IMG/VR virus record: IMGVR_UViG_3300030331_005246
Location: 1-62,224 of that record
Length of the DNA: 62,224 nucleotides
Source of the DNA: a virus
Taxonomy: Duplodnaviria; Caudoviricetes
Reading direction: 5' to 3' (one strand)
Part shown: piece by piece, positions 30,242 to 62,155 of the stretch
Position numbering within the stretch: position 1 is the first letter of the stretch
Layout: the number at the start of each line of letters is the position of its first letter
Translations under genes and position numbers: made by a program
The notes under the pieces: generated by a model
The model's input: only the letters and a program-made list of their open reading frames with translations
Told to the model about the DNA's origin: nothing
Databases searched by the model: none

Positions 30242-30243
30242 GA

Positions 30244-32972: not shown

Positions 32973-33008
32973 CGATTGTATCCTTTTATTTGTGTATTAG
33001 TTTGTACG

Positions 33009-37832: not shown

Positions 37833-37834
37833 GG

Positions 37835-37957: not shown

Positions 37958-38244
37958 GATTTGTCCTTGGCTTTTTTTGCAGCCTTTGCGGCTTTTTTGG
38001 CTTTACCCTTTTCGTATTCGTCTTTAGTCTGCCAATCTTCTTTACCCCATTTGCTTAATGATTTTTGTTTAGCACCTTTACCACCTTTGTACCCGCCACC
38101 AGCTTTCTTATACTCGGAAGCTACGAGCTGCGCTTTACGTGCAGACCACTGACCAGCTTTACCACCTTTGGTTCCTTTCATGACACGGTTTTTAATCCGT
38201 TCACGCAGTTCTGGTTTCGTGTATTTGCTGTCGTCTTGAGCCAT
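37954..38244 (-). CDS. basic protein (DUF5872-like N-terminal half)
   Basis: YTKPELRERIK...GGKAGQWSARKAQL...YKKAGGGYKG. Confidence 0.75.
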   Translation of the reverse strand: MAQDDSKYTKPELRERIKNRVMKGTKGGKAGQWSARKAQLVASEYKKAGGGYKGGKGAKQKSLSKWGKEDWQTKDEYEKGKAKKAAKAAKKAKDKS

Positions 38245-38501
38245 TATGCTTGAGGAAATGTAATCGGAGGTAAGCCAAGTACTCTTTCTATTTCTCTTCT
38301 AACTTTTCTTGCACCTGGTAGTTTGGGATCGTTGTAGATACTGTAGCCAGGAGTGCCTGGTCCTGATTTAGGCTTGATATCAAAACTAGGATTACCAGCC
38401 ATCATCATTCCTGGAACACCCATGCTCATGTGTAGATAATTACCTTGTGGTTGCATGACACCCAACATGGCACCAAAATTACCGCCAAATCTCGGGTCCA
38501 T
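38244..38501 (-). CDS. hypothetical protein
   Basis: Coupled ORF. Confidence 0.6.
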   Translation of the reverse strand: MDPRFGGNFGAMLGVMQPQGNYLHMSMGVPGMMMAGNPSFDIKPKSGPGTPGYSIYNDPKLPGARKVRREIERVLGLPPITFPQA

Positions 38502-38851
38502 TACGATACCCTCTTATTTAAGAATCCAGAATTCTTAGCAGGGTATTGATCTTGATTTAAACCACCAACGTTGCCACCGGCTGTGCCCTGGAAACCACCG
38601 ACAACCTGGCCTACCAAGCCTAAGTTCTGATAAGGGTTTTGTGCAATTTGTCCTGCCATACCAAACATGTTCATCCCAGGCACCGCTTGTCCCATTTGAG
38701 GTCCACCGAACATGCTGTTTTGTGGAGTGGCTTCTTCTTGATTTGGAGAAATACCCTGCATCATGCTATTGATTCCCCCAATCAGTCCGCCATAGGCTCC
38801 AATGTTTCCCATGCCTCCACCAACGGTGTAACCCTGGCTGTAGTTATACAT
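38501..38851 (-). CDS. Gly/Met-rich hypothetical protein
   Basis: TAGAAT at 38872-38877. Confidence 0.6.
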   Translation of the reverse strand: MYNYSQGYTVGGGMGNIGAYGGLIGGINSMMQGISPNQEEATPQNSMFGGPQMGQAVPGMNMFGMAGQIAQNPYQNLGLVGQVVGGFQGTAGGNVGGLNQDQYPAKNSGFLNKRVS

Positions 38852-39810: not shown

Positions 39811-41346
39811 TTAATAATCCAATTGAAGTTGTCCACGTTTCATCAGTCCAGTAACCAGCCAAACAAGTGCATCCACACAGTCATCATGGGAGCTAACACC
39901 AAAGTTGGTTAGCTCTTCAAACATATTTGTGAAGTTCCTGTACCTGTTAAATATTATTTTACGATCCTCAAACATTCCCATAATTCCACGGAAACGTGCC
40001 AGTTTGTCTGAACGGAATCCTTTGACTGGATGCCAAATTAAATTATAAAGGTTCTCATTCTGCAGGCAGATTCGTTTGAAGTCTGCTTCTAAGGAAGCCT
40101 GGTATTGCACAGCTTCTGACCAGATGTCACAGGTTGAATAGGTTGGGAACCACAGGCCATCAGCTTGTTGGCCAATAATTGACCAGTCATGCAATAGCTC
40201 TTTCATGGCATCGAGCTTTTCGAGGTTGCCCATGACACGCAACCGCCTGTAGTCAATGATGTGGATTTTGTCTCCGATACGACCACCCAGTACCATGACT
40301 GTGTAGTCGTTCTTTTCCTTCACTCCTGCCGATAGATCCACACCAATACCGAGACAATCAAATTCTGTTGAGATCTCAGCTTTGACTAGTAATTCTGGTG
40401 CCAGTGACAGTTCATTCTGCCTGACAATTGTATTCATGTACTGAAACGAAAAAGCAATAGGAGCTTGGCGTTTCTTTTCTTTGAGGTACTCTAAGGACCA
40501 CATCTCAGGCCAATATGACTCTTCATCGCCTGTCTCCGGGTTATTTAAGATCGCTGATAGGACGATTTGAGTCCAATTATTTTGTGGGCAAAACGTTGTG
40601 GCATGGATATCGTCATGACGGAATCGTGTACCCAGGCAGATCGCCCGCCCTCCCTCAAACATTGTGGGAGCAATCACAGCATTCCAATTGTCCATCATCA
40701 TCTTGCGAATGTCTGGGTTGCCAATATCGGCGGCAGATTTCACAGGGTCATCAATGATGACCAGATGAGAACGTTTGGAAGTCACTGAACCTTTTAATCC
40801 AGCGGCGCATAGAGTGAATTGTTCTTCACCAGTTGTATCAATGCCAGCAAACTTATGGTCGATTGACCAGTATTCATTGCTCGTAACGTTCTTGAGCAGC
40901 TTAACTTTGGGAAAAACTCTTTGATATTTCCTTGATGCGATGATTCGTTTGATAGTGGCTGACTTGGATCTGGCGATATCAACGGTATAACTGAGATAAA
41001 GAATTTGTAGTGGCTTCTTTGCCATGGTATGAATACCAATGGCCCATGCTGTATATAAACCCAGCACAGTCGATTTGGCTGAACCACGGGGGCCGAGTAA
41101 ATCAATATTGGGACCGGCAATTTTAGTTAAACAGTTGGTGTCTTCGTTGGTAACTAATTGCCTATGCCAATCAAGATGATGTGGTGCTGGTGGTTTATCT
41201 GCTACGTATGCACAAAAGAAACCAAAGTCTTCTCTGGCTCTCTGAAAGATTTCTTCCTGGTCACTTTTACGAAAGCGATGTTTAGCTGCAGAAGCTTTAG
41301 CGTTACGTCTGTAAGCTAAATGTAAATGAGAAGGAGGTGCTGGCAC
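39811..41346 (-). CDS. terL: terminase large subunit
   Basis: Walker A-like PRGSAKST, Walker B VIIDDP, GTRFRHDD coupling motif, RNase H nuclease GVDLS...HDDCVDA. Confidence 0.93.
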   Translation of the reverse strand: MPAPPSHLHLAYRRNAKASAAKHRFRKSDQEEIFQRAREDFGFFCAYVADKPPAPHHLDWHRQLVTNEDTNCLTKIAGPNIDLLGPRGSAKSTVLGLYTAWAIGIHTMAKKPLQILYLSYTVDIARSKSATIKRIIASRKYQRVFPKVKLLKNVTSNEYWSIDHKFAGIDTTGEEQFTLCAAGLKGSVTSKRSHLVIIDDPVKSAADIGNPDIRKMMMDNWNAVIAPTMFEGGRAICLGTRFRHDDIHATTFCPQNNWTQIVLSAILNNPETGDEESYWPEMWSLEYLKEKKRQAPIAFSFQYMNTIVRQNELSLAPELLVKAEISTEFDCLGIGVDLSAGVKEKNDYTVMVLGGRIGDKIHIIDYRRLRVMGNLEKLDAMKELLHDWSIIGQQADGLWFPTYSTCDIWSEAVQYQASLEADFKRICLQNENLYNLIWHPVKGFRSDKLARFRGIMGMFEDRKIIFNRYRNFTNMFEELTNFGVSSHDDCVDALVWLVTGLMKRGQLQLDY

Positions 41347-48701: not shown

Positions 48702-51700
48702 TTAGTTTCTCCGTGAGCCACGACGACGGTCAGCTTGTGCCAGGGATCTGGACATCATTACATTAATATCATTCTCGCCCATTGAGCTGATTGGATCAAC
48801 CGGATCATCGAATTGACCTTGCAAGTAAGAGAGATTGCGCGTGGCTGGTTCGTTGTCTGGAACAGGATCGAAGCGAGCACCATAGGCTGCATTAGCTAGA
48901 TCATTATAAGGTCGCTTGGTATTCGCAATCGCTTGTGCATTAGCAGTCATATTGCCACCAAGATTGCTGAGGTAAGCAACACGCCTTTCGCTGGGAGGAG
49001 TCTCCATGGCTGCTCTGTAATCCACCATCTGAGCACCAGCTGTGCCAACATCTCGCCTGTTAATAGAAGAACCAAAAGATCGAATTTGAGATGGTCTACT
49101 TCTTGTTTGTTCAATGACTCGTTCTGAAATAGGTGAATAGGTGCGTTCGATTGTTTGATCAGGAATTACCGCAAACTTATTTGTCAGCCTTGGTGGCAGT
49201 TGATTTCCTGTATACCTTTCACGTGGTGCTGCACTATCGGATGTACTAAGAACTCGACCATATCTGACATTACGTTCTTTACCTGTGCTTGGATCAACAA
49301 CCTTTTTATCCTGCACCAGCCTGGCATCCAGCACAACCTGTGGTGCTGTGTTAATACGTGGTGTCATGAAGGCGACATTCCGCATATCGTCATAGTCATC
49401 ACCAATCGTCATTGGATCGATACCACCAACACCTCCGGTCTTGACTGCACTGGGAATTTCAAGTGCTTCACCCTGTGTCCTTGGCGTGAGCACCATGTCT
49501 GTTCCTTGTTTTTGATAGTCATAAATAATGTTGCCGTCTGCATCAAGCGCAGCTTTTGCGCCATACTTTCTTGTTTCTTTCGTTGTTCCTAACAAGTCGT
49601 TCAGGAATGTATGTGCAGCTGTGCTGTGATAACTACCAAATTTATTCTTTTGCGTTTCAAGGACAGGAATCTCTACGCCTTGCTGTAGCAGCTCATCGTA
49701 CAGTCTGCCAATGATGAAGTCATTGCGAGTTGCACCACTGCCGATTTCATTCAGTAGTTTGCCGCTAGCTACACCCTCTGCTAATTCACCAGGTCTGAAT
49801 TGTTCCAAGAAGTTTTTCTTCATGGAAGGGTTATTGCTGTAATCGTAGAGAGCATCATCGACAATCTTTTGAACTTTTCTGCGGCTCAATTGGAAATCAA
49901 CAAACGGTCTGTCCTCTAAGAATTGCAAGCTGGTGCTGCCATCAGGATTCTTCATGCGTGTAGCCATGCGTCCTTGCAAAGGCTCTGTGCCTTCAACAAC
50001 ATTTTTGCTGGACATCACATAAGGAACACCATCGATTGTTTCAATGCGTTCATCAACGTCCGCATCGAACCGACGCCTACGTTGAGCTGGTTGTTCTGTA
50101 ATATATTCACTTGCTTCTGGTGCGTCCATTTCAAAACCACCAGTCAGACGTGAGCCTTGAGTATTTAAATCATCAGAATAAAGTTTGCCATACTGCCTGT
50201 AGGCTTGTTGATCAAGTCTGGTTGCACCAGTAACAGGATCGACGTAAATACCACGGGCTGGGTCATAGTCTCCATCGGCCCTACGCACTGGAAGTTGTTG
50301 ATCTTCTGCGCGTTCCATCCGCACATACTGTGTATCAGCAGCTTGTTCAGGAACAGCACGACTCAGACTGACTCTGCCGCCTCTGGAGATCGGCCCACCA
50401 GTGGCTTCCATCACCATGCCTGGCACTTCTGTTGTGCCGGTATTGGTTCGCTCCCTGAATGTTTCGGTATCGACGATGCCGCCCACACCTTCTGCGCTGG
50501 CTAAACCTTCTGCGCCATAGGGATCAAAACTTTGTCCGGCAGCGCGGGCAACAAAAGGATTGCGGTCATCGACGATGTACATGTCATCACCGATTTGAAC
50601 TCTACGTGCCAGCATCTCGGTGTCGTTGTTGGCCAGGTCGCCACGGCCAAAGCTGGCTCTTGCACCTTCAGTGATTTCCTGCTGCATGTTGGTGCCAACA
50701 CGCCCACGGACTTCACGCAATGTCGAGCCCAGTAATGTCTGGACTTTGTCTTTGGGAACAGCTGGATCAAGCAGCTGTTGGCGCAGAACTTCTTCTTGAG
50801 CTGTATCGCCGAGTGATGCTGCTGCATTGATGCGATCAATCGCTTCATTCTTCATCTCAGCAACAAAGCCTGCAGGATCAGGACGCATACCACCAGGTGA
50901 ACGCCTGGCTCGTTCTGCTGTTTCCAGGTTGGTGTCAGTGAACATATTGCGGCGTGGACGCCCGCCGAGTAATGCTTTCTGCTCTGACTTGGAGAGTTCA
51001 CGCACGGTGCGGCCATCAGCTGTGGGCAGATCGCGGACATCACCTGTGAGCATGAAAGCAGAACTTGTGCCAGAGCTGCCTTGTGACAATGAACGTTGCA
51101 ACACCGGATCAGCCAGCTGCCGCTCAGAAAGACCACCGGACATGTCATCAGCCAGAGCGTCTTGCAACGTGGCTTTCTTGGGTCCGACATCACTGCCGGT
51201 GTAAGCAAAGTCCTGCATCATCCGTTGTTGACGCGGAGTCAAACCCCTGGCCATGTCAATGGCTGAATCGCTTTGAATTTCCACAACTGGATCAGACTTC
51301 TTAAGAAGATCGACCAGGGATGACACTGTGTTGTCAGCTAGACGCTGCGCTTTACGCACCGATGCTTGATTACCAACCTGGTTCGCTGGTGTGGAATCAG
51401 TAAAGGCATCAAAATTGAAACCAGACGCTGATTCAGCAACATCAACGGCTGCTTCGCCTAATGCGTAGGTTGGACGTGGATTACTTTGCAGAGAAGCGGC
51501 TTTTGCCTCTGCTCCTTTCTCTGCATTGTTAATAACAAAACTCTGAGAGGTTGGATTGACCGTACTGGGATTATTAACTTGATTCTGAACAATCGAGTCT
51601 GTGAATTCATTACTTGCTGCAGCTTGAGAGCGGTCAACGCGAACAGCATCAATATCAATGACTTGACTACCAGCATTGGCTGCTGCACTGCCAGCATTGG

Positions 51701-52034
51701 GTCCTCGACCTGGTTTTGGTCCTTGAGGCCCTGGTCTTGGACCGCTTGGCCCTTCCGAGGTGGGAGGCGAACCGCTTGCCTGCGGTTTCGTTCGGTTTTT
51801 AAACCCCTGCAGGCCGCGTCGACCCAGAAGAGCCGCACCACTGAGAACACCAAGTCCCAATAAGCCCGTACCAACGGCTTGAACCGGGTCAAAGTCTGAA
51901 TTTTGGTCCGCCTTCAGCTGGTTCTGGCGAAAATTCTGGACCATCGGGAATAATTCAGCCCGTTCTTCCGCTGATTGAGGGTATGGAGTGCCTGTTGCTC
52001 TGCTGTAGGCCGCATAATCTGCTGCAGTTACCAT
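48702..52034 (-). CDS. large hypothetical protein (1110 aa), putative internal virion protein
   Basis: First gene of the minus-strand block; one hydrophobic segment near the N-terminus. Confidence 0.7.
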   Translation of the reverse strand: MVTAADYAAYSRATGTPYPQSAEERAELFPMVQNFRQNQLKADQNSDFDPVQAVGTGLLGLGVLSGAALLGRRGLQGFKNRTKPQASGSPPTSEGPSGPRPGPQGPKPGRGPNAGSAAANAGSQVIDIDAVRVDRSQAAASNEFTDSIVQNQVNNPSTVNPTSQSFVINNAEKGAEAKAASLQSNPRPTYALGEAAVDVAESASGFNFDAFTDSTPANQVGNQASVRKAQRLADNTVSSLVDLLKKSDPVVEIQSDSAIDMARGLTPRQQRMMQDFAYTGSDVGPKKATLQDALADDMSGGLSERQLADPVLQRSLSQGSSGTSSAFMLTGDVRDLPTADGRTVRELSKSEQKALLGGRPRRNMFTDTNLETAERARRSPGGMRPDPAGFVAEMKNEAIDRINAAASLGDTAQEEVLRQQLLDPAVPKDKVQTLLGSTLREVRGRVGTNMQQEITEGARASFGRGDLANNDTEMLARRVQIGDDMYIVDDRNPFVARAAGQSFDPYGAEGLASAEGVGGIVDTETFRERTNTGTTEVPGMVMEATGGPISRGGRVSLSRAVPEQAADTQYVRMERAEDQQLPVRRADGDYDPARGIYVDPVTGATRLDQQAYRQYGKLYSDDLNTQGSRLTGGFEMDAPEASEYITEQPAQRRRRFDADVDERIETIDGVPYVMSSKNVVEGTEPLQGRMATRMKNPDGSTSLQFLEDRPFVDFQLSRRKVQKIVDDALYDYSNNPSMKKNFLEQFRPGELAEGVASGKLLNEIGSGATRNDFIIGRLYDELLQQGVEIPVLETQKNKFGSYHSTAAHTFLNDLLGTTKETRKYGAKAALDADGNIIYDYQKQGTDMVLTPRTQGEALEIPSAVKTGGVGGIDPMTIGDDYDDMRNVAFMTPRINTAPQVVLDARLVQDKKVVDPSTGKERNVRYGRVLSTSDSAAPRERYTGNQLPPRLTNKFAVIPDQTIERTYSPISERVIEQTRSRPSQIRSFGSSINRRDVGTAGAQMVDYRAAMETPPSERRVAYLSNLGGNMTANAQAIANTKRPYNDLANAAYGARFDPVPDNEPATRNLSYLQGQFDDPVDPISSMGENDINVMMSRSLAQADRRRGSRRN

Positions 52035-52428: not shown

Positions 52429-52990
52429 GATGAAGTGAATTTGGGTTAATTGTTTGGGGTAGAAGGGAACTTTTACCTCAATTTGTGCTGAAAATTTTTA
52501 TTTTTATTTATAATTTTATATTTTTTTAATTATTAACTCATATATGTGAAAAAGGCTAAAAATTATCCGAGACATCTCACACACGTCATCCGACTGTGAT
52601 GCCGTATAGAAAAAAAGAAAGGGTGGGATAGGTGTTAATACCTACTGGGCGGGACGGCAGCCAGTCGAGCGATGACTGTGACAATTTGGCCAACTGACAC
52701 ACTAACTGGCACACTAAGTGTCACACTGTGACAGTTGCCGAACTGTCCCCAACACCCCTGCGAAACCCGCAGACAATCCCCTAACCGGCCACCAGCGCCC
52801 GTTAAACCCCTGCGAAACCCAGCCGAAATCCCTTCCGGCGCAATGGATCTCAGACTTTTTGCGCCCATTTGGGAAAGATTTCCGCGCTAATAATCGCCGC
52901 GTAAGACTGTTATCTACACGATCTAAATGATAATTAAGCGAGAAAGTTGATACGAATTCGTATTACTTTCCGCCGTTAATCATAGATCTA
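52429..52990. promoter_or_regulatory. non-coding control region (AT-rich tract, short repeats, long palindrome); candidate origin, genome end or early promoter
   Basis: AT-rich 52490-52560; AACTG(A/G)CACACT x2; ACCCCTGCGAAACCC x2; GAAAGT-TG-ATACGAATTCGTAT-T-ACTTTC at 52942-52970. Confidence 0.55.
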
Positions 52991-52992
52991 AT

Positions 52993-53037
52993 CGTCAAGC
53001 TGGACGTTAAACGTAGCGCCAAACTCTACTCAACTCA
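52993..53037 (+). ncRNA. degenerate family-B pseudoknot element (copy B0)
   Basis: CGTC-AAGCTG-GACG-TTAAAC-GTAGC followed by CTACTCAACTC, just before ATG 53040. Confidence 0.5.
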
Positions 53038-53039
53038 TC

Positions 53040-53264: not shown

Positions 53265-53335
53265 CCACAGGCGTGACGCTGGAGCCTCGAAGGCTCCGGT
53301 TACTTATTGCCTCCAGCAGAGATAGGCACTGCACA
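53259..53335 (+). ncRNA. family-A structured element, copy 1 (three-way junction plus pseudoknot)
   Basis: AAGTAA/TTACTT closing stem, CAC-AGGC-GTG, GCTGGAGCC-TCGAA-GGCTCCGGT; then TGCCT-CCA-GCAG-AGAT-AGGCA-CTGC. Confidence 0.75.
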
Positions 53336-53600: not shown

Positions 53601-53670
53601 CCACCAGCGTGATGCCGGGGCCTCGAAGGCCCTGGTCAGCTCTTGCCTCCTGTGGAGATAGGCACCACAT
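53596..53670 (+). ncRNA. family-A structured element, copy 2
   Basis: GCTGA/TCAGC, CAC-CAGC-GTG, GCCGGGGCC-TCGAA-GGCCCTGGT; pseudoknot stem 2 changed to GTGG/CCAC. Confidence 0.75.
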
Positions 53671-53876: not shown

Positions 53877-53947
53877 TTCGTTCAAGCGAGTGACCAGGTG
53901 CAAACCCTGGTCCAGTTATTGCCTCCAGCAGAGATCGGCACTGCACA
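53871..53947 (+). ncRNA. family-A structured element, copy 3
   Basis: AACTG/CAGTT, TTCG-TTCAAG-CGAG, ACCAGG-TGCAAAC-CCTGGT; TGCC..GCAG..GGCA-CTGC. Confidence 0.75.
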
Positions 53948-54120: not shown

Positions 54121-54195
54121 CTGATTCGTACAAGCGAGTGACCAGGTGCAAACCCTGGTCCAGTCCTTGCCCACAGCGGAGATGGGCACCGCACA
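54119..54195 (+). ncRNA. family-A structured element, copy 4
   Basis: GACTG/CAGTC closing stem; pseudoknot TGCCCA/TGGGCA with GCGG/CCGC (double covariation). Confidence 0.75.
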
Positions 54196-54393: not shown

Positions 54394-54465
54394 TCCGTCA
54401 ACGCGGTCATCCCCGGTGCAATGCCGGGGTCAGCTTTTGCCTCCAGCAGAGATAGGCACTGCACA
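54388..54465 (+). ncRNA. family-A structured element, copy 5
   Basis: AGCTGA/TCAGCT, CCG-TCAACG-CGG, CCCCGG-TGCAATG-CCGGGG; pseudoknot identical to copy 1. Confidence 0.75.
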
Positions 54466-54707: not shown

Positions 54708-54749
54708 AGTCCTGAGCATGACTCTAAACTGCTCACGACTCAACTCAAC
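54708..54749 (+). ncRNA. family-B pseudoknot element, copy B1
   Basis: AGTC-CTGAGCAT-GACT-CTAAAC-TGCTCA-CGACTCAACTCAAC. Confidence 0.8.
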
Positions 54750-54763
54750 CGTTAATCATTCCA

Positions 54764-54982
54764 ATGACTCAATCCCCAGCGAGTTACATCAGCGCCATTG
54801 CATTCGGTATTGCCATTGGCCTCATCGGTTGTGTAAGCGGTCAACGCTTACTCAACAACCACAACACTGTGCAATGCGCTAACAAGAATGCAACGCACAA
54901 GCTTGTTACTTACAGCTCATACCTTGGCGATGCCAAATATTGTATGAACAAGCGTGCTTTTCATTACGGTCCTGCTCACTAA
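54764..54982 (+). CDS. early small membrane protein
   Basis: TM segment ISAIAFGIAIGLIGC. Confidence 0.65.
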   Translation: MTQSPASYISAIAFGIAIGLIGCVSGQRLLNNHNTVQCANKNATHKLVTYSSYLGDAKYCMNKRAFHYGPAH

Positions 54983-54991
54983 TTCCTCACC

Positions 54992-55168
54992 ATGACACCA
55001 CTCAACCTTCGCAACAAGTTCAGAACAGCAACACATCTGACAGCATCCGGCTTGATGAAAGCCGGTGATGCCGTTGCTGACATGCAGATGCCAGATACAG
55101 AATCTTTTGTACTTGGCATCAAGAAAATCCGCCGTAACATAGCTCAGACCATTCAACCCAACGATTGA
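54992..55168 (+). CDS. early hypothetical protein (58 aa)
   Basis: Read manually: MTPLNLRNKFRTATHL... Confidence 0.55.
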   Translation: MTPLNLRNKFRTATHLTASGLMKAGDAVADMQMPDTESFVLGIKKIRRNIAQTIQPND

Positions 55169-55175
55169 ATCCTTT

Positions 55176-55406
55176 ATGCAAGAAAGTTACACTGAGCGTC
55201 ACCCAGACAACAACATCAGCATCGAACTACCGATGCATGAAACCATCACGACATACCTACCGAACGGTTATCGGTTTGTCGTGGAAAACACAGGTGATCA
55301 AATCATCACTCGTTATTACAATCCCAATGACGAGTGTACCCGTGAAATCACCTGTGACTATAGCGGCGAGGTCCGTTACATCAACTTTCCAACCAAATCA
55401 GTTTAA
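55176..55406 (+). CDS. early hypothetical protein
   Basis: ORF track. Confidence 0.6.
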   Translation: MQESYTERHPDNNISIELPMHETITTYLPNGYRFVVENTGDQIITRYYNPNDECTREITCDYSGEVRYINFPTKSV

Positions 55407-55432
55407 TTATTCCTTAATCTTTCCTATTTGTT

Positions 55433-55606
55433 ATGTCCCCGCTCAACGAAACCCAAAAGACCACTTTGCCACTTATCGCACTGTGTGCCGTCGCAACACC
55501 GTTCGTCGGCCCAGTAGCACTCCTTGGTGGTCTTGGCATGACTGCATACTACTGCGCCAAATCCAACAAGAACCAATCCGATGACTCAACACACCCTAAG
55601 AACTGA
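55433..55606 (+). CDS. early small membrane protein (57 aa)
   Basis: Read manually: MSPLNETQKTTLPLIALCAVATPFVGPVALLGGLGM... Confidence 0.5.
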   Translation: MSPLNETQKTTLPLIALCAVATPFVGPVALLGGLGMTAYYCAKSNKNQSDDSTHPKN

Positions 55607-55733
55607 GGCCACACATCAATGGGGCAACACTACATTTCGTGTTGGCAATCGTTTTTACAACGTTGACTCGCACAAATCACCAGGCCTACGTAACAAATTA
55701 GGCCGCGCACTCATGAAGTTACTACACCTTTAA
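55581..55733 (+). CDS. early hypothetical protein (50 aa)
   Basis: Read manually: MTQHTLRTEATHQWGNTTFRVG...; stop immediately precedes element B2. Confidence 0.5.
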   Translation: MTQHTLRTEATHQWGNTTFRVGNRFYNVDSHKSPGLRNKLGRALMKLLHL

Positions 55734-55738
55734 TTCAT

Positions 55739-55766
55739 AGTCCTGAGTATGACTTTAAACTGCTCA
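55739..55766 (+). ncRNA. family-B pseudoknot element, copy B2
   Basis: AGTC-CTGAGTAT-GACT-TTAAAC-TGCTCA (U-G wobble in stem 2), followed by an extra hairpin. Confidence 0.8.
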
Positions 55767-55834
55767 TGTCAACAGAACGGCATTTACTTAACGTATCCGT
55801 TCTGACTTGTTAACTCAACTTAACTCTACTTGTT

Positions 55835-56122
55835 ATGTCCGACCATGCACACCGCATCATGATGCGTCAGCTCAATGCTGACGACAACATGATACACGCA
55901 GACGAGCAGTATGTCCACCAGCAGATCCTTGCTGAGCATGCATACCATCAAGAACAGGCTATGCGAGAAGGCATGCCTGAACCTAGTGAGACTCAACGTT
56001 CAGTGAGTGATCGATGCTTTAGCAACTGGATTTCATTGCTAAGTAACACAGGATCACATCGATCTCGCTGGTCAGAAGACGATGGTGACCTGCTCGACTA
56101 TCGTTCGGAGGATGTGATATGA
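55835..56122 (+). CDS. early hypothetical protein
   Basis: ORF track. Confidence 0.65.
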   Translation: MSDHAHRIMMRQLNADDNMIHADEQYVHQQILAEHAYHQEQAMREGMPEPSETQRSVSDRCFSNWISLLSNTGSHRSRWSEDDGDLLDYRSEDVI

Positions 56123-56243
56123 GTGACATGAAACTCCGACTTCTCGATCACACCAGATACAACGTTGAATATGTGGAGGAAGACACCCTCACCATTGTCG
56201 TTGCCCTGGTCTCCTGCTTCATCACTATTCTTCTTGACTTGTT

Positions 56244-56708
56244 ATGGCCACCATCACAGAAACAATCTTCGAGTTCAGAGTCCCCAGTGAATACGAAGTT
56301 TACAACAAGGGACTCTTTAATTTCATCGAACGTTATCCCAGAACAGGCGCAGCTCGTTACTGGCTCGAACAATACAACTATCTCACAGAGTTCAACGGCA
56401 AAGAACCAACAGCAATTCACATCCACCTTGTCTGGCAAGTCTACGTCTCACCTGCAGAAGGTGGCTGTTGGGACGAACGGCGTGAGCCCATCTACAACCA
56501 CCACGACCACAAAGACGACCAGATCAAAGAGGTCTCAACCATCTGTGTCTACAACAAGAAACAATGCATCAGAGAATGCCTTGCCCTCACCCAACACCAT
56601 GACCTTGCTTATCAACCAAGAATCGACACCACAGCAGACAACGTCGCCGTCGACGTAACGCTTGACCATGGCTACTGTCAAGCCAAGTACCCTTCTCCTT
56701 ATTGTTAA
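56244..56708 (+). CDS. early hypothetical protein
   Basis: ORF track; SPAEGGCW motif. Confidence 0.65.
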   Translation: MATITETIFEFRVPSEYEVYNKGLFNFIERYPRTGAARYWLEQYNYLTEFNGKEPTAIHIHLVWQVYVSPAEGGCWDERREPIYNHHDHKDDQIKEVSTICVYNKKQCIRECLALTQHHDLAYQPRIDTTADNVAVDVTLDHGYCQAKYPSPYC

Positions 56709-56714
56709 TTCACC

Positions 56715-56948
56715 ATGAACATTACTGTCCAAACAACAGGTCTTAAACCTGATTCAATGATTTACGATCTCAGACTTGATCGTGATGAATTCAAAGCTTT
56801 GTACTTTACTCTTGTAAGGTATCTTGAATCCCAGGATCCTAATGATGAGATTGACTTCCATAATGGCTACAAAATGTTTAAAGATATACACACTAGAAAG
56901 ACGGCGTATATATTAAGACACCTTGAATTAATAGGTGCCAAAGAATAG
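56715..56948 (+). CDS. early hypothetical protein
   Basis: ORF track. Confidence 0.6.
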   Translation: MNITVQTTGLKPDSMIYDLRLDRDEFKALYFTLVRYLESQDPNDEIDFHNGYKMFKDIHTRKTAYILRHLELIGAKE

Positions 56949-57053
56949 ATTAACTAACACAGCTATGCCTGGGCAGCACATCGTGCGTAAGTCCCAGGCT
57001 TTGTTGTAGTTATTTATATAAGTATTTCTTATGTCCCGCTACTTGTTTTAGCT

Positions 57054-57419
57054 ATGTCAATTCAGTTTCCATTGTATCGACTTCTCTATACCGAGAAGCT
57101 TGATCCTCCACATGACCATGTCACCAGATATCACACAATCGAGTGGTATCAAACCGACAAAGAAGCTCAATCAGCTGCCAAACGTTGGAACAAGAACCAC
57201 AGATACCACACCTCTGGGGTTCAGGCATGGCATGAAGCTGACTTCAAAGCTGAGTACAAACAATTCCAGGACGACTTCGATCCCTCACCCCAGGTCTACG
57301 ACGACTGGGCATCATGCCCTGACTACGACTCCTGGTTATACGACTGGATCGATGAGCGTAAGTATTACCACTTTGAACCTGCAGCACCACAATCACAACA
57401 ACTCACCAAACAATCATGA
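57054..57419 (+). CDS. early hypothetical protein
   Basis: ORF track. Confidence 0.6.
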   Translation: MSIQFPLYRLLYTEKLDPPHDHVTRYHTIEWYQTDKEAQSAAKRWNKNHRYHTSGVQAWHEADFKAEYKQFQDDFDPSPQVYDDWASCPDYDSWLYDWIDERKYYHFEPAAPQSQQLTKQS

Positions 57420-57588
57420 AAGTCTTCATTAATTTCTCCACAGATAACGCTGCGTTCGATCGACCAGATGATTACGCAGAGTTTGAACGCATCATGGAAG
57501 AACTCAAGACCACAATTAGCCATAACAACAGTGGTGTTATCCACGATATCAATGGCAACAAGATTGGACTATGGAGTTGGGTTGACTC

Positions 57589-57810
57589 ATGAAATACAAA
57601 CCCCATTTCGACATGCTTACAGCACGTGAGCAATTAATCGTAGACATGAACTTCATCGTTGAAGACATTACGTATGGCGCACTCAGTCCAAGCGAAATGA
57701 ATACTTTAACTCGCAAACTTTGTGATGCGGTGTACAAACACTTACCTACACCAACAGTGCCATGTGGCACTGAAATAATTTATTGGCGTTTTGTTGACTT
57801 ACCTAATTGA
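57589..57810 (+). CDS. early hypothetical protein, paralog of 57814..58002
   Basis: KPHFD.L.A.EQL...LTRKLCDAVYK..PTPT shared. Confidence 0.7.
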   Translation: MKYKPHFDMLTAREQLIVDMNFIVEDITYGALSPSEMNTLTRKLCDAVYKHLPTPTVPCGTEIIYWRFVDLPN

Positions 57811-57813
57811 CCC

Positions 57814-58002
57814 ATGGAAAACAAACCTCACTTCGACAACCTGAGAGCATGCGAGCAACTAATGGAAGACATTGAATCCATCATTGAAAACTTTTGGTAT
57901 GCGACCTGGCCTGAAGGTCAATTTCTAGAAGATAGAAATGACTTGACCCGCAAGCTTTGCGATGCCGTTTACAAAAACTATCCCACCCCAACACCTGATT
58001 GA
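57814..58002 (+). CDS. early hypothetical protein, paralog of 57589..57810
   Basis: Shared motifs with the upstream gene. Confidence 0.7.
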   Translation: MENKPHFDNLRACEQLMEDIESIIENFWYATWPEGQFLEDRNDLTRKLCDAVYKNYPTPTPD

Positions 58003-58005
58003 CCC

Positions 58006-58233
58006 ATGATTGAACTCAACGGCTTTTGCACTGATGAACCCTTCACATTTGACGAGGGCATGACAGAGGAAGACTTTAGATCTGAGGTCATCAAGTGTCT
58101 CCAAAATCAAAGAGATGATCTTGATACTTTGTTTAATGCATTTGTTCTTATGGCAAATATGGCCGATCTTGACCCCCATGCGCTGTTCCAAGCAGCAAAG
58201 CTCATTCAAAGAGACATCTCCACACCTGATTGA
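58006..58233 (+). CDS. early hypothetical protein
   Basis: Flanked by CACACCTGATTGACC(C/T)ATG junctions. Confidence 0.65.
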   Translation: MIELNGFCTDEPFTFDEGMTEEDFRSEVIKCLQNQRDDLDTLFNAFVLMANMADLDPHALFQAAKLIQRDISTPD

Positions 58234-58236
58234 CCT

Positions 58237-58419
58237 ATGAACCACGAAAACCGTGACACCCTCATCTACAACTACGCAACGCAGGTTGTTGATGACATGG
58301 ACTTCAAAGATCTCTGCGTTTTTGCAGTCGAGACAATTGAGAAAAACATGGAAAGCTACAGCGATGAAGAAGTCATCACTGAAATCAAGGACCACTATCC
58401 ACACTTACTTGAGGATTGA
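58237..58419 (+). CDS. early acidic hypothetical protein
   Basis: YATQVVDDMDFKDL...YSDEEVITEIKDHYPHLLED. Confidence 0.65.
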   Translation: MNHENRDTLIYNYATQVVDDMDFKDLCVFAVETIEKNMESYSDEEVITEIKDHYPHLLED

Positions 58420-58543
58420 CCCATGACCTACCGTAGGTCTTATTAAAGGTTTAGGTGATTCCCTTTAATAAGAAAACTTCTTATTAAAGTTTTGCCCGTT
58501 ACTCCAGTTTAGGAGCAATCGAGCCTCACGATTAATCCAATCA

Positions 58544-58585
58544 AGTCCTGAGCATGACTTTAAACTGCTTACTACTCAACTCAAC
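58544..58585 (+). ncRNA. family-B pseudoknot element, copy B3
   Basis: AGTC-CTGAGCAT-GACT-TTAAAC-TGCTTA-CTACTCAACTCAAC. Confidence 0.8.
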
Positions 58586-58598
58586 TTGTTTCTAACTC

Positions 58599-58772
58599 AT
58601 GAAACATTTCAAAGTCGTTTACGAACAGCACCTATGGGTTGATGGCCATGGCTACTCAACCAGCAGGCGTTTTCAAGACATTTACGCCAAAGACATGGAC
58701 CACGCCCTAGGTAAATGGTCAGTCATGCAGCTTGACAACCAATCACTGATGTTTATCATCGAACAACCCTAA
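58599..58772 (+). CDS. early hypothetical protein (57 aa)
   Basis: Read manually; fills the B3-B4 interval. Confidence 0.6.
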   Translation: MKHFKVVYEQHLWVDGHGYSTSRRFQDIYAKDMDHALGKWSVMQLDNQSLMFIIEQP

Positions 58773-58777
58773 TCAAT

Positions 58778-58819
58778 AGTCCTGAGCATGACTATAAACT
58801 GCTCACTACTCAACTCAAC
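58778..58819 (+). ncRNA. family-B pseudoknot element, copy B4
   Basis: AGTC-CTGAGCAT-GACT-ATAAAC-TGCTCA-CTACTCAACTCAAC. Confidence 0.8.
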
Positions 58820-58839
58820 TTGGTTCTAACTATTGACCC

Positions 58840-59019
58840 ATGACCAAACGACAATTCCCCTTGATGCTCAATGAGGAGCAAGCCGAGTTTGTGCATAACG
58901 CTGTCTGCGGTGTCCCCGACGATCAACGCAAGGACGGCGACGAGGAGGTTCTCGGTTACCTACTCGAAGAACTCGACATAATCCTTTGCCGTGTTCAACT
59001 CTCTGATCCCTTTGATTGA
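58840..59019 (+). CDS. early hypothetical protein (59 aa)
   Basis: Read manually: MTKRQFPLMLNEEQAEFV... Confidence 0.6.
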   Translation: MTKRQFPLMLNEEQAEFVHNAVCGVPDDQRKDGDEEVLGYLLEELDIILCRVQLSDPFD

Positions 59020-59022
59020 CTT

Positions 59023-59214
59023 ATGGACTACACACTCACAGACAAACAACGCATCCTTATCGTCAACGCATTGAAAAAATACCATGCGTGGCTTGGTATA
59101 AGAGCGGAGCAAGCCTTGTACGAGAAAAACCAAGATGAAATCCTTTGGCTCATTGATCTTATTGATCTAAACCAATACATCACGCTATCAGATTCACGAC
59201 CCACACCTGATTGA
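59023..59214 (+). CDS. early hypothetical protein
   Basis: MDYTLTDKQRILIVNAL. Confidence 0.65.
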   Translation: MDYTLTDKQRILIVNALKKYHAWLGIRAEQALYEKNQDEILWLIDLIDLNQYITLSDSRPTPD

Positions 59215-59217
59215 CCT

Positions 59218-59388
59218 ATGGACTACACACTCACAGAAAGACAATGCGGAATGATCATCAACGCATTAAACATTTATGTCGACAACTGTCCACGTTCATA
59301 CATACAAGAAGTCGAAACAATCATTGAGCTTCTTGATGACGAAGTTCATGCTCACTACCACGGCATTAAATTCGCCACACTTAACTAA
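59218..59388 (+). CDS. early hypothetical protein, paralog of 59023..59214
   Basis: MDYTLTERQCGMIINAL, read manually. Confidence 0.6.
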   Translation: MDYTLTERQCGMIINALNIYVDNCPRSYIQEVETIIELLDDEVHAHYHGIKFATLN

Positions 59389-59396
59389 CAACAACC

Positions 59397-59600
59397 ATGC
59401 CAACTACCAGAGTTTACGTTTGCGTCGATGCTGCTCATCAATCAATTGAACTTCAATCAGACAATGGCACCGACGCAATAGAAGATGCAGGCCTAGAAAT
59501 TGTCAGTGACATTACTGATGATTGTGCTGGTGATTTCAGTGACATCCTGACACTGGAACAATTGCTATCTTCTGAATCTAACTTCGTTCCTCACGATTAA
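59397..59600 (+). CDS. early hypothetical protein
   Basis: ORF track. Confidence 0.55.
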   Translation: MPTTRVYVCVDAAHQSIELQSDNGTDAIEDAGLEIVSDITDDCAGDFSDILTLEQLLSSESNFVPHD

Positions 59601-59604
59601 TCTA

Positions 59605-59859
59605 ATGAAATTTTCTGATCTTCACTTCAAACCAATGAAACATACGCGAGCAGGCCAACAAGCCAAGCATAGATTCAGTAATGGTTGGTCGATCTCAATC
59701 ATTACTGGGTGTGGCTGGATGTATACGTCACCTAACAGTCCTTATGAAGTTGCAGTTATTAAACCAACAGGTGAATTCTTAAACGATGATGTTCTTAGTC
59801 ATCAAAGCAAAGAAGACATTGATGCTCTTTTGAAAAAGGTAGGTAATATCCCTACTTAA
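59605..59859 (+). CDS. conserved phage hypothetical protein
   Basis: MKFSDLHF...FSNGWSISII...YEVAVI. Confidence 0.7.
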   Translation: MKFSDLHFKPMKHTRAGQQAKHRFSNGWSISIITGCGWMYTSPNSPYEVAVIKPTGEFLNDDVLSHQSKEDIDALLKKVGNIPT

Positions 59860-59864
59860 TCAAT

Positions 59865-59906
59865 AGTCCTGAGCATGACTTTAAACTGCTCACTACTCAA
59901 CTCAAC
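59865..59906 (+). ncRNA. family-B pseudoknot element, copy B5
   Basis: AGTC-CTGAGCAT-GACT-TTAAAC-TGCTCA-CTACTCAACTCAAC. Confidence 0.8.
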
Positions 59907-59918
59907 TTGTTTCTAGCT

Positions 59919-60395
59919 ATGGGCCTCGACATGTACCTCAAAGGTGTCAAGTACTTTACTACTTGCACCCATGAACACGAAGCTGGTGTTGGCTTCGTCA
60001 GTAAGATCAACCCACTCTACCAGTCAATCGCTGAACATTTTGACATCGAATGCGACGATGAGTTAGGCGTTGGTGAAATCCACATGCCAGTCATGTACTG
60101 GCGCAAGGCCAACCAAATTCACAAATGGTTTGTTGACAACACTCAAGGTGGTGAAGACAAGAATTGTGAGCCAACTCCTGTCAGCAAAGAACAGCTTCAA
60201 CAATTGCTTGATGATGTCACCTTTGTGCTCGAGCACAAAGATCCATCAGTGCTGCCAACCCAATCTGGATTTTTCTTTGGCAGCACTGACATTGATGATT
60301 ACTATTGGGAAGACTTGAACAACACACGTTCAGCTCTAGAAAAACTATTGAAAGCTGATAAGTTTGAAAGCTTCATCTATCAGTCTTCCTGGTAA
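59919..60395 (+). CDS. conserved phage hypothetical protein (MGLDMYL...YWRKANQIHKWF family)
   Basis: MGLDMYL, YWRKANQIHKWF, LPTQSGFFFG, YQSSW. Confidence 0.8.
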   Translation: MGLDMYLKGVKYFTTCTHEHEAGVGFVSKINPLYQSIAEHFDIECDDELGVGEIHMPVMYWRKANQIHKWFVDNTQGGEDKNCEPTPVSKEQLQQLLDDVTFVLEHKDPSVLPTQSGFFFGSTDIDDYYWEDLNNTRSALEKLLKADKFESFIYQSSW

Positions 60396-60404
60396 TACCT
60401 CTCA

Positions 60405-60446
60405 CGTCCTGAGCATGACTTTAAACTGCTCACTACTCAACTCAAC
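60405..60446 (+). ncRNA. family-B pseudoknot element, copy B6
   Basis: (C)GTC-CTGAGCAT-GAC(T)-TTAAAC-TGCTCA-CTACTCAACTCAAC. Confidence 0.8.
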
Positions 60447-60458
60447 TTGTTTCTAACC

Positions 60459-60983
60459 ATGGGTGAATACTGCTACCGACTGGCTGACAGACAGTCAGTC
60501 AAGATGGGTACATGCGCTGACATGTACTACCTCAGATTTGAAGACATGGCTGATGTAGAACCAGAAGAAGGTTCATCGTTTGGCTCACGCTTCCGTCTAC
60601 CTTGGCCTGATGAAGACCAGTACTTGCCTGGTGACTACTGCGATGGACAAGCACAAGGTGGCTACAGAGAATGCGCTCTTGTTGGTGACAGAATTAATGG
60701 CAAACTTCGATTCTTCCAACCAGCACCAGAAGAAATGCGTGAGACAGGTCCTTTCTACAGACTCACTGCTGTTCGCTGGTATGACAATTGTCTTGTCCCT
60801 GTTGTCTCTAGCTACATGAAAGAAGATGATAGTCAATTCAATTACATGCAGAGATGGCGTGACACCTGGCCCAATGTCCTGCCATACATTGGCAGCACTG
60901 GAGTCAAACTAGAACTCAAAGGCAGGCTGTACATGTACAGCATCATTACCAATGTGACTCATGCATTTACTTATGCATCGTAA
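60459..60983 (+). CDS. early hypothetical protein
   Basis: MGEY...VKMGTCADMYYLRFED...RFRLPWPDED. Confidence 0.7.
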   Translation: MGEYCYRLADRQSVKMGTCADMYYLRFEDMADVEPEEGSSFGSRFRLPWPDEDQYLPGDYCDGQAQGGYRECALVGDRINGKLRFFQPAPEEMRETGPFYRLTAVRWYDNCLVPVVSSYMKEDDSQFNYMQRWRDTWPNVLPYIGSTGVKLELKGRLYMYSIITNVTHAFTYAS

Positions 60984-60992
60984 TTAATCTCA

Positions 60993-61032
60993 CGTCCTGA
61001 GCATGACTATAAACTGCTCATGTCAACTCAAC
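60993..61032 (+). ncRNA. family-B pseudoknot element, copy B7
   Basis: (C)GTC-CTGAGCAT-GAC(T)-ATAAAC-TGCTCA-TGTCAACTCAAC. Confidence 0.8.
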
Positions 61033-61042
61033 TCTACTTGTT

Positions 61043-61780
61043 ATGATCAACAACATCGATGCAATCAAATCCAAGATTGCCAAACTGTTGCGTATGCAGA
61101 CCTCAGGTAATGCCAACGAGGCTGCCAATGCTGCTGCCAAGGTGCACCAACTCTGTCAAGAGTATGGCCTCTCACCTGATCACATCGATCCCAACGCAGA
61201 CTCAACAGCACACCAACCCACCCATTGGTTCATGAATTTCATGGGTAAACGTTGCAACGCTGAGCAAACAATGCTGCTAGATGGCATTGTTAAATACTTC
61301 AATGGCAAAATAATTCTCAATGATCATGAGGGTCAAAAATGTTGTGAAGTATTTGCCAGTGAAGGCAGACGCATTGAAATCGAGATTTACTTTGAGTATC
61401 TCATTGAGACCATGACCAAACAGGCTGATGAAACCAGAGAGGAAAGAGATCCCTACCACGAAGACCCTACCTTCAAACGTAACTTCCGCAAAGGCTTTGC
61501 CGAGAAAGTTCAACGCAGGTTAATTGACATGCGTAAAGAAGAACAGATCGAAGCGGAAGACAACAACCACCAGGAAGCACTCGTTGCTCTCAGCCGTGGC
61601 AAGCAAGAGTTTACTCGTAATCTAGACTTGCTCAAACGCACCCATCCCAGACTCAAAAAGAGTAGTGGGTGGACTAATTCCCATGGCAATGGTGGCAGCA
61701 GCGGCAGAGCTGCTGGCTCACGTGTTGGACTCAACCGCCAAATGGCCAAAGGCAGCTCACGTCAGCTGAAAGGTTACTGA
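61043..61780 (+). CDS. DUF2786-domain protein
   Basis: IKSKIAKLLRM..SGNANEAANAAAKVHQLCQEYGL N-terminal domain; FRKGFAEKVQRRL; GRAAGSRVGLNRQM C-terminus. Confidence 0.8.
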   Translation: MINNIDAIKSKIAKLLRMQTSGNANEAANAAAKVHQLCQEYGLSPDHIDPNADSTAHQPTHWFMNFMGKRCNAEQTMLLDGIVKYFNGKIILNDHEGQKCCEVFASEGRRIEIEIYFEYLIETMTKQADETREERDPYHEDPTFKRNFRKGFAEKVQRRLIDMRKEEQIEAEDNNHQEALVALSRGKQEFTRNLDLLKRTHPRLKKSSGWTNSHGNGGSSGRAAGSRVGLNRQMAKGSSRQLKGY

Positions 61781-61786
61781 TGACAT

Positions 61787-61829
61787 CGTCCTGGACATGA
61801 CGTTAAACTGTCTACATACTCAACTCAAC
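61787..61829 (+). ncRNA. family-B pseudoknot element, copy B8 (covariant)
   Basis: CGTC-CTGGACAT-GACG-TTAAAC-TGTCTA-CATACTCAACTCAAC. Confidence 0.8.
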
Positions 61830-61834
61830 TTGTT

Positions 61835-62155
61835 ATGACTTCATCAATTGACATGACTTCATCAATTACGACCTATGACATGCTGCTTCTTCTTATTGAA
61901 CAAGAGAAAGAAGCATACCGAAAACTACTTGGCAATGTTGGATATCCTTTACATGCTGATGACAAGACTCTGTTGTTTGAATTGTTTCTCGATGACAAGT
62001 ATACAAAGTTTGTCATGAGACTCAGCTATACACCAATGGATGGTGAGTCTGGTAGGCCATATCACAGACTCAAATGCACCATGACACTTAATGGCAAGCC
62101 TATCAGTTTAACTGCTCTCAAACTTATCGCTTGCACGGAGAAACTCAATGGCTAA
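61835..62155 (+). CDS. early hypothetical protein
   Basis: ORF track; follows element B8. Confidence 0.6.
   Translation: MTSSIDMTSSITTYDMLLLLIEQEKEAYRKLLGNVGYPLHADDKTLLFELFLDDKYTKFVMRLSYTPMDGESGRPYHRLKCTMTLNGKPISLTALKLIACTEKLNG

Follow-up and report, generated by a model that had tools for sequence, protein, structure and literature searches.

A recurrent 28-nt H-type RNA pseudoknot in phages and bacteria

Introduction

T7 RNase III sites, repetitive extragenic palindromic (REP) hairpins and chloroplast PPR10-type barriers act between cistrons, as structures or bound factors, to delimit mRNA segments and shield their ends, and the folds of exoribonuclease-resistant RNAs (xrRNAs) block RNase J1. 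A direct precedent for the barrier function proposed here is the mRNA of T4 gene 32. As PMC3014915 describes, RNase E cuts this mRNA just upstream of a leader pseudoknot, the product is stable, and the region between the knot and the start is unstructured. In PMC4604425, the defining features of the pistol ribozyme are three stems (P1, P2 and P3), a pseudoknot that joins the P1 loop to the P2-P3 junction, and a GU junction at which the RNA is cleaved. Here we describe a 28-nt pseudoknot-forming element (the knot) that occurs in eight copies in IMG/VR virus record IMGVR_UViG_3300030331_005246. The window that we analyzed is the whole of this record, which is linear, 62,224 nt long and has an estimated completeness of 79%; open reading frames (ORFs) of the window and of related loci were called mechanically. 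A sequence-only reading had proposed that each copy folds into a minimal pseudoknot, acts as RNA and is followed by a C/A-rich leader.

Results

Eight copies of the element in the window

All eight starts that had been proposed were correct, as judged by word search, a covariance model and a geometry scan (Table 1). Seven copies differed by no more than one mismatch from the 27-mer at 59866-59892, with 0 expected from 100 shuffles, and the eighth (B8, at 61787), which has differing stem sequences, was recovered with a degenerate pattern. The covariance-model search, which the earlier reading had suggested as a check, recovered the eight copies at 41.7-49.6 bits (E <= 3.2e-8) as well as many others outside the window. 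A scan for the stem geometry that was independent of sequence returned the same eight plus one likely chance match at 23933 (shuffles: mean 0.84, maximum 3). With up to one mismatch, the word CTCAACTCAAC had 11 matches in the window compared with 1.29 expected, all on the + strand and at the elements.

Stem 1 had been proposed to pair (A/C)GTC with GAC(T/G); in B6 and B7 the outer pair is C opposite U, which leaves 3 bp. The stem variants were seen as stated and preserve pairing: TGAGTA gives a U-G pair, TGCTTA a G-U pair, and B8 combines TGGACA/TGTCTA with CGTC/GACG. The leader begins directly after the knot in most copies, but a 32-nt hairpin intervenes in B2. A ninth, degenerate copy had been placed at 52993 (B0). 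Its stem 1 and TTAAAC linker stand, but stem 2 is missing, and the covariance model matched there only at model positions 16-25 (53003-53012; 10.2 bits, E 3.2). B3 is preceded by a 124-nt non-coding gap.

Table 1. Copies of the element in the window, with associated leaders and start codons
Feature	Position	Strand	Fold and context	Leader	ATG	Bits
B0, degenerate copy	52993-53039	+	stem 1 CGTC/GACG and TTAAAC linker kept, stem 2 lost	C/A-rich, to ATG	53040	
B1 core	54708-54735	+	stem 1 AGTC/GACT, stem 2 TGAGCA/TGCTCA, linker CTAAAC	54736-54763	54764	41.7
B2 core	55739-55766	+	stem 2 TGAGTA/TGCTCA, one U-G pair		55835	42.0
B2 inserted hairpin	55773-55804	+	32 nt, between knot and leader			
B3 core	58544-58571	+	stem 2 TGAGCA/TGCTTA, one G-U pair	58572-58598	58599	45.6
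B4 core	58778-58805	+	upstream stop ends 5 nt before core	58806-58839	58840	42.9
B5 core	59865-59892	+	upstream stop ends 5 nt before core	59893-59918	59919	47.5
B6 core	60405-60432	+	outer stem-1 pair C opposite U; upstream stop ends 9 nt before core	60433-60458	60459	49.6
B7 core	60993-61020	+	outer stem-1 pair C opposite U; DUF2786 protein downstream	61021-61042	61043	42.7
B8 core	61787-61814	+	compensatory stem 1 CGTC/GACG, stem 2 TGGACA/TGTCTA	61815-61834	61835	46.8

Covariation of both stems

The element proved to be a genuine pseudoknot of the H type that forms in RNA. In order, it comprises stem 1 of 3-4 bp, a single-base loop (C), stem 2 of 5-6 bp, a junction U and a six-base A-rich loop, UUAAAC, that crosses stem 1. 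A pattern scan of IMG/VR gave 71 loci, nearly all of which were true elements upstream of an ATG, and a looser regular expression extracted 111 distinct copies from them. These copies, minus four probable chance matches (L008, L022, L054 and L060) and plus the eight copies of the window, formed an alignment of 115 rows (A2). A second alignment (A3), independent of A2, was built from 103 copies in bacterial genome contigs. Paired cells made up 94.9% in A2 compared with 85.6 +/- 0.5% in shuffles, none of 500 of which reached the observed value, although kinship among copies within phage lineages means that the shuffle controls overstate significance. Free of this weakness are the bacterial replicate and the slid controls, in which the partner was shifted by 1-3 columns and only 17-49% of cells paired.

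Compensatory double changes were detected in A2 at four stem-2 pairs (10-30, 11-29, 12-28 and 13-27) and at stem-1 pair 4-19 (CG 90, AU 9, UA 8, GC 2), and the covariation of stem 2 was reproduced in A3. The outermost pairs of both stems were often open in A3; the core therefore consists of 3-4 bp plus 5-6 bp. The search patterns had fixed the three inner pairs of stem 1, on which the A2 counts are silent. However, swaps at these pairs were present in copies found with the model or the looser expression (GGAC/GTCC and AGAC/GTCT), in Staphylococcus phage B166 (CGAC/GTCG) and in Vibrio phage D456 (TCTC/GAGA).

The kind of mismatch tolerated in the stems was informative about the molecule under selection. 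Among the variable pairs of A2, G·U/U·G occurred 81 times and A·C/C·A 6 times, and at the four inner pairs of stem 2 the ratio of G·U to A·C was 59:6 in A2 and 58:5 in A3. A DNA palindrome, or a protein operator on DNA, is blind to the difference between G·T and A·C, and the strong excess of G·U on the sense strand therefore points to selection on the sense-strand RNA and not on a DNA palindrome or promoter. Both the pseudoknot and the RNA-level action that had been proposed are thus supported by the covariation of the two stems and by this wobble pattern. The unpaired C8, U15 and UUAAAC loop were almost invariant, which the search patterns partly imposed; all of these patterns fixed part of the motif, such that base conservation is overstated and divergent members are under-sampled.

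Two other structures or signals were considered and rejected. One involved a nested pairing of the 5' strand of stem 1 with the leader, which appeared in minimum free energy folds but was not conserved across loci by eye. Another involved a relay through a mini-ORF starting at an AUG at knot positions 14-16, for which a stop near the main ATG was found in 33/114 cases, equivalent to the control frame (33/132).

Absence from described RNA families

A search of the whole window against Rfam 15 at gathering scores gave 0 matches, pistol, riboswitch and xrRNA families included, and a search at E <= 10 over six copies (58500-61900) gave none at the elements. On 18 bacterial loci, Rfam matched only tmRNA and tRNA and nothing on the motif. 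No description of the motif was found in the literature searched. PMC10690425 lists 10,006 candidate RNAs from viruses, six of them upstream of GP20 scaffold genes, and these six may overlap with the knot motif. The knot belongs to a large RNA class unannotated in Rfam that occurs in many phages and in some bacterial operons.

A likeness to the pistol ribozyme, without P2 and P3, had been noted earlier and was found to be of exactly this extent: only P1, the pseudoknot and the A-rich linker correspond, whereas the knot has neither P2 nor P3 nor a cleavage junction, and no Rfam match was obtained at E <= 10. The leader downstream of the knot contains 4% G and no conserved stems. On sequence grounds, the knot is not a pistol ribozyme.

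Distribution in phages and bacteria

The window codes for a primase-polymerase/D5-type primase, a large terminase subunit and tail fibres. The large terminase subunit is 79.7% identical to its counterpart in Synechococcus phage S-EIV1, and a 793-aa virion protein is 64.7% identical to its S-EIV1 counterpart. Judged by these two similarities, the window represents a freshwater-type cyanophage of the S-EIV1 lineage, and the cyanobacterial host assumed in the sequence-only reading was borne out. Near-identical phage DNA was not found by megablast.

In S-EIV1 itself, the covariance model detected at least 7 copies at 25.9-43.0 kb, each on the strand that carries the early/replication genes. The sites include those directly upstream of genes 32790-33554 and 36999-38756 and of the gene for the single-stranded DNA-binding protein (SSB), where the element at 30484-30517 (-) precedes the SSB coding sequence (29657-30466). 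A complete 82.6-kb relative (G001) had six matches on one strand at 15.4-32.7 kb, and in both genomes the copies were confined to the early/replication gene block.

The covariance model gave 145 matches at E <= 0.01 on the 71 IMG/VR loci. A scan of prokaryotes with one genome per species yielded at least 120 loci and at least 128 matches. Many of the 80 record titles listed were from Bacillota, Omnitrophota, Planctomycetes, Patescibacteria, Thermodesulfobacteriota, Anaerolineae and Actinomycetota; one was from Halothece, one from Methylococcus, and none of the 80 from Enterobacterales or Pseudomonadales. Some bacterial contigs with a knot were plainly phage (e.g., L112 and L177). A BLAST search with a 32-nt copy against cultured phages matched 137 records, including 83 from Staphylococcus, 27 from Vibrio and 3 from Synechococcus phages, as well as phages of Nostoc, Microcystis, Mycobacterium, Arthrobacter, Paracoccus, Lactobacillus and Bacillus; two of these records, B166 and one Vibrio phage, were looked at individually. 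The knot is not cyanophage-specific, and a regulator peculiar to the phage in the window is made less likely by a motif that recurs in so many groups of phages and phyla of bacteria.

Spacing, leaders and downstream genes

Spacing was analyzed in 147 copies from S-EIV1-like phages, 142 of which had a same-strand ORF starting at an ATG within 110 nt. The distance from knot to ATG was 19-22 nt in 80/142 and 25-28 nt in 29/142, and longer spacers often held an inserted hairpin. On the other side, a same-strand ORF of at least 60 codons ended exactly 5 nt upstream of the knot in 48/135 cases and closer in only three. With a 40-codon threshold, the upstream stop lay exactly 5 nt before the knot in 54/147 copies, corresponding to 40/111 clusters of upstream sequence, and the 5-nt spacers differed in sequence. 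When a stop codon occupies the A site, the mRNA is enclosed by the ribosome to ~11 nt past the first P-site base, i.e., ~5 nt past the stop, and an initiating ribosome covers ~15-20 nt upstream of the start. The hard minima of 5 nt and ~19 nt would fit a knot that stays folded while both neighboring genes are translated. They would also place the upstream ORF and the knot on one transcript, which a DNA promoter would not require.

One contig (L023) has the order stop codon, 5 nt, knot, 2 nt, tRNA-Arg(TCT). This 5.9-kb AT-rich phage contig carries the tRNA-Arg(TCT) inside an operon of small genes (L023:81-195(-)).

The C/A-rich, unstructured leader without a Shine-Dalgarno (SD) sequence that had been described for the window was confirmed in 128 related leaders, which contained 4.0% G compared with 21.6% in the background and an SD-like 4-mer in only 4/128. 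The 5-mers of the word CTCAAC topped the leader counts, which the search pattern partly forced. Window genes with no knot nearby lacked an SD too. Among 103 proteins encoded downstream of a knot, 13 were SSB (phrog_44), and two families of unknown function accounted for 15 and 13.

Promoters and bacterial contexts

In a family of ~255-aa genes, a TTGACG-18-TATAAT promoter ended 6-7 nt before the knot in three loci (L010, L030 and L056), weaker versions were present at the same distance in L062 (GATAAT) and L068 (TTGTCG/CATAAT), and a related promoter lay 15 nt upstream of the knot in L020. With a canonical promoter just upstream, the knot in this family should therefore be the first structure of the primary transcript. 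In L083, a TTGACA/TATCAT promoter lay ~85 nt upstream of a knot that ends 7 nt before the ATG. All these promoters would place the knot on the transcript. A sigma-70-type promoter conserved over the window elements was not found: only B8 matched (9/12), and 22 sites were counted compared with 17.0 +/- 4.1 expected. The upstream flank of the window elements was not conserved and had no conserved -35 box, and no terminator-like sites followed these elements.

In prophages of Bacillota and in Staphylococcus phage B166, the knot lay between a head-morphogenesis gene and a scaffold gene and was followed by 40-75 nt that contain an SD. Among the matches listed, the scaffold family was downstream in 20/92 cases, and 17/128 bacterial copies had a T-rich upstream flank, the knot often standing right after a T-tract. 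Other genes downstream of bacterial knots coded for Rrf2 regulators (10/92 among the matches listed), hemerythrin, YHS, desulfoferrodoxin, peroxiredoxin and other redox or metal proteins; elsewhere a terminator followed, which lay within ~20-50 nt in L111, L116, L117 and L194.

A small conserved Cys-containing ORF ended inside or at the knot in 43/128 bacterial copies among the matches listed, its UGA often at knot positions 15-17. This ORF (L083:4604-4681(-) and 42 other bacterial loci among those listed) codes for ~22-30 aa with a Cys-x-x-Gly-Cys/His motif near the end and occurs in Omnitrophota, Planctomycetes, Thermodesulfobacteriota, Chloroflexi and some Clostridia. It had no match in Pfam or NCBIfam, and peptide words of a 25-aa representative were not found in the literature searched. 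The Cys-containing ORF and the knot before Rrf2/redox genes may form a new leader-peptide control system. A further arrangement was observed in a Bacilli metagenome-assembled genome contig (L130:250-2200(-)), in which four knots occur in 2.2 kb and a conserved ~90-nt A+T-rich stretch with TATAAT-like words separates each knot from the next small gene; a promoter may thus lie downstream of the knot in this contig.

Other features of the window and S-EIV1

The + strand between 53040 and the record's end is tightly packed with small genes of unassigned function. In this region, a second repeated leader element (family A) was present in five copies compared with 0 expected (53307-53333, 53643-53669, 53919-53945, 54167-54193 and 54437-54463, all +). 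It also reads as a pseudoknot with compensatory variants, pairing having been assigned by eye (TGCCT/AGGCA to TGCCC/GGGCA; GCAG/CTGC to GTGG/CCAC or GCGG/CCGC), and each copy has a G+C-rich hairpin before it and an AGGAG-type SD after it. A run of small genes at 57790-59225 (+) shares the junction CCTGATTGACC(C/T)ATG with 5-6 nt from stop to next start (by eye), suggestive of paralogues in tandem that are coupled in translation without an intervening knot.

The divergent region at 52440-52760 (+), between a 1110-aa ORF (48702-52034, -) and the early genes, has an A+T-rich block at ~52480-52545 and several GTGACA/TGTCAC-type words at ~52670-52735, and may be a regulatory region or an origin. 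The N-terminal third of the 1110-aa ORF is of low complexity, and the ORF had no Pfam or PHROG match. It was considered as a phage RNA polymerase, which would have given a reason for promoters; this candidate was dropped, as neither database gave a match and no polymerase-like motif was seen by eye.

In S-EIV1, the annotated coding sequence of the large terminase (KJ410740.1 54080-56620, ~2.5 kb) aligned in two pieces with the 511-aa window protein (39811-41346, -). The S-EIV1 gene therefore contains a ~1 kb insertion absent from the window phage, perhaps an intein or intron-like element.

Discussion

We tentatively favor, at a probability of about 0.4, a function of the knot as a constitutively folded intercistronic or 5'-terminal barrier that stabilizes the downstream mRNA segment. 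The element would be transcribed within the mRNA and fold as a compact H-type pseudoknot, occupying the shortest space that allows it to fold between a ribosome terminating upstream and another starting downstream. As a mechanically stable barrier, it would mark and protect the 5' end of the downstream segment against 5'-end-dependent decay, whether by RNase E scanning or by the RNase J exonuclease, and would keep the G-poor, SD-less leader free for ribosome entry; it might also block 3' exonucleases on the upstream segment. The position of the knot at +1 of a primary transcript and the sharp 5-nt stop distance fit a 5'-end or intercistronic barrier. We favor this function because of the intercistronic position, the restriction to one temporal gene block, the location before highly expressed scaffold genes and the direct precedent in T4 gene 32.

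Several observations weigh against a barrier. A simple hairpin is enough as a 5' stabilizer, and the near-invariant loop bases, which suggest a specific partner or a tertiary fold, are outside this model. So are the bacterial copies that overlap an ORF, since ribosomes that translate a small ORF ending inside or at the knot must unfold it there. The tRNA downstream of the knot in L023 needs no such 5' protection. The 5-nt and 19-nt minima could result from genome compaction combined with any function that needs the fold, and nested-only folding energies were not unusual (z +1.07 to -3.03 for six copies) and were uninformative. Vibrio phages carry the knot, and their hosts are not known to have RNase J; a distribution limited to hosts with RNase J, which we had considered, is weakened by these copies.

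Alternatively, the knot may act in translation, as a ribosome standby site or enhancer that docks the 30S subunit, perhaps via S1, beside the C/A-rich leader for an SD-independent start; we regard such a function as unlikely. The leaders (4.0% G, an SD-like word in 4/128 and frequent CTCAAC 5-mers, partly pattern-forced) and the knot-to-ATG distance of 19-22 nt in 80/142 copies suit such a site, inserted hairpins keep its two ends close, and precedents are described for the tisB 5' pseudoknot, needed for 30S and S1 binding (PMC7708055), and for ACA or C/A-rich enhancers (PMC3879156). However, a purely translational role is weakened by the Firmicutes prophage knots, which lie 40-75 nt from starts with their own SD, and by the tRNA directly after the knot in L023; the L083 knot, 7 nt before the ATG, would block the ribosome, several bacterial loci have a terminator rather than a gene after the knot, and window neighbors without the element also lack an SD. 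It is rather improbable that the knot is an operator for an RNA-binding protein, at which phage SSB or another regulator would nucleate and then spread over the leader to shut down an early-gene regulon, in the manner of gp32 on its own mRNA in T4. The architecture does match that of the T4 gene 32 operator described in PMC3014915, a pseudoknot and then an unstructured leader to the start, and the SSB gene itself bears the knot in S-EIV1, SSB represents 13/103 downstream proteins and the loop bases are nearly invariant. Yet the same loops are kept before prophage scaffold genes and bacterial Rrf2/redox genes in unrelated phyla, and no shared phage protein was evident, co-occurring families not having been sought systematically. 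T7 early mRNAs are cut into cistrons, and an RNA processing signal of this kind, by which a host endonuclease or self-cleavage would split polycistronic transcripts, has a low probability here. The knot does sit at cistron boundaries, with a pistol-like layout of P1, pseudoknot and A-rich linker, and in the genomic niche of small self-cleaving ribozymes, which PMC4604425 describes as common near certain phage genes (scaffold downstream in 20/92 among the matches listed). It has no P2, P3, GU junction or Rfam ribozyme match at E <= 10, conservation is limited to 28 nt with no conserved flanking base as a candidate cleavage site, and cutting would be superfluous for a knot that already stands at +1 of a primary transcript.

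A role in transcription, in which the knot in the nascent RNA would modify RNA polymerase or contribute to attenuation by a leader peptide and so tune terminator read-through, appears very unlikely overall. It would account for the bacterial loci in which a small ORF runs into the knot with a terminator ~20-50 nt on (L111, L116, L117 and L194), for the T-tract flanks in Firmicutes (17/128 copies T-rich upstream among the matches listed) and for the indifference to the type of downstream gene, tRNA included, but the window elements have no terminator-like site after them and the tight stop/start spacing points to ribosomes, not polymerase. A DNA promoter with TAAACT as the -10 box and its start at the 3' edge of the element has hardly any probability left. 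TAAACT fits TAnnnT, B8 is promoter-like (9/12), the annotation of Staphylococcus phage B166 has a program-predicted promoter over the element, and repeated conserved elements before gene clusters are typical of phage promoters; nevertheless, there is covariation in the interleaved stems, where G·U greatly exceeds A·C and does so solely on the sense strand, no -35 is conserved, one of eight elements matched (22 sites against 17.0 +/- 4.1 expected), canonical promoters lie just upstream of some copies, and a sharp 5-nt exclusion zone follows the stop codon. In particular, a promoter that acts regardless of pairing, the outcome by which the sequence-only reading was to be refuted, is unlikely given the strand-specific wobble pattern. 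It is just as improbable that the knot is a small riboswitch, in the size class of preQ1-I, for a host metabolite. The H-type topology with an A-rich third loop is the same, and the unpaired bases are highly conserved, but stem 2 needs no ligand to be stable, no metabolic theme unites the downstream genes, a genome has up to eight copies and no Rfam riboswitch matched.

The near-invariant loops, the covariation, the wide spread and the absence from Rfam and from the literature searched suggest that the knot is a general device of gene expression that has been overlooked. The exact 5-nt stop distance would be an in vivo readout of the leading edge of the ribosome. If the knot determines the ends or the stability of mRNAs, as the barrier function implies, it would help to explain differences in phage expression within long polycistronic transcripts and would offer synthetic biology a tiny insulator part. 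In its boldest form, which we consider doubtful, this idea makes the knot the first prokaryotic counterpart of viral xrRNAs, a 28-nt protein-free directional roadblock between cistrons that fixes mRNA ends and half-lives, or, in a variant, a minimal relative of the pistol core that is catalytic or guides a nuclease. An xrRNA-like or pistol-relative element would, if true, be a new and very widespread class of functional RNA.

Compared with known systems, the knot resembles the T-even gene 32 leader in being an H-type pseudoknot of two coaxial stems located 5' of an unstructured leader to a phage start codon, and the SSB gene of S-EIV1-like phages also bears a knot and an unstructured leader. 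However, the T4 leader is A+U-rich and ~40 nt long, whereas that of the window type is C/A-rich and ~20 nt, with no sequence relationship shown. In addition, T4 has just one such knot, which serves autoregulation, whereas the knot described here is repeated 6-8 or more times per genome, on genes unrelated to one another, and is also found in bacteria. The tisB standby site of E. coli likewise has a pseudoknot near the mRNA 5' end beside a single-stranded region, needed for 30S/S1 binding (PMC7708055), but it acts in a toxin mRNA at a distance of ~100 nt from the ribosome-binding site, which is sequestered, has no sequence similarity to the knot and belongs to no repeated family. The pistol ribozyme (Rfam RF02679) shares with the knot a short P1 hairpin whose loop is in a ~6-bp pseudoknot, an A-rich stretch right after P1 and, as reported in PMC4604425, an association with phages and Firmicutes; the knot differs in having no P2, P3 or GU cleavage junction and in that the 3' strand of its pseudoknot comes directly after the 6-nt linker. 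The xrRNAs of flaviviruses and plant viruses are, for their part, compact pseudoknotted folds that halt a 5'-3' exonuclease without a protein, but they are larger ring-like folds in the 3' untranslated regions of eukaryotic RNA viruses, while the knot is a 28-nt H-type fold without an obvious ring. Finally, T7 RNase III sites, REP hairpins and PPR10 barriers are simple hairpins or protein caps, whereas the knot is a pseudoknot conserved in sequence across phyla.

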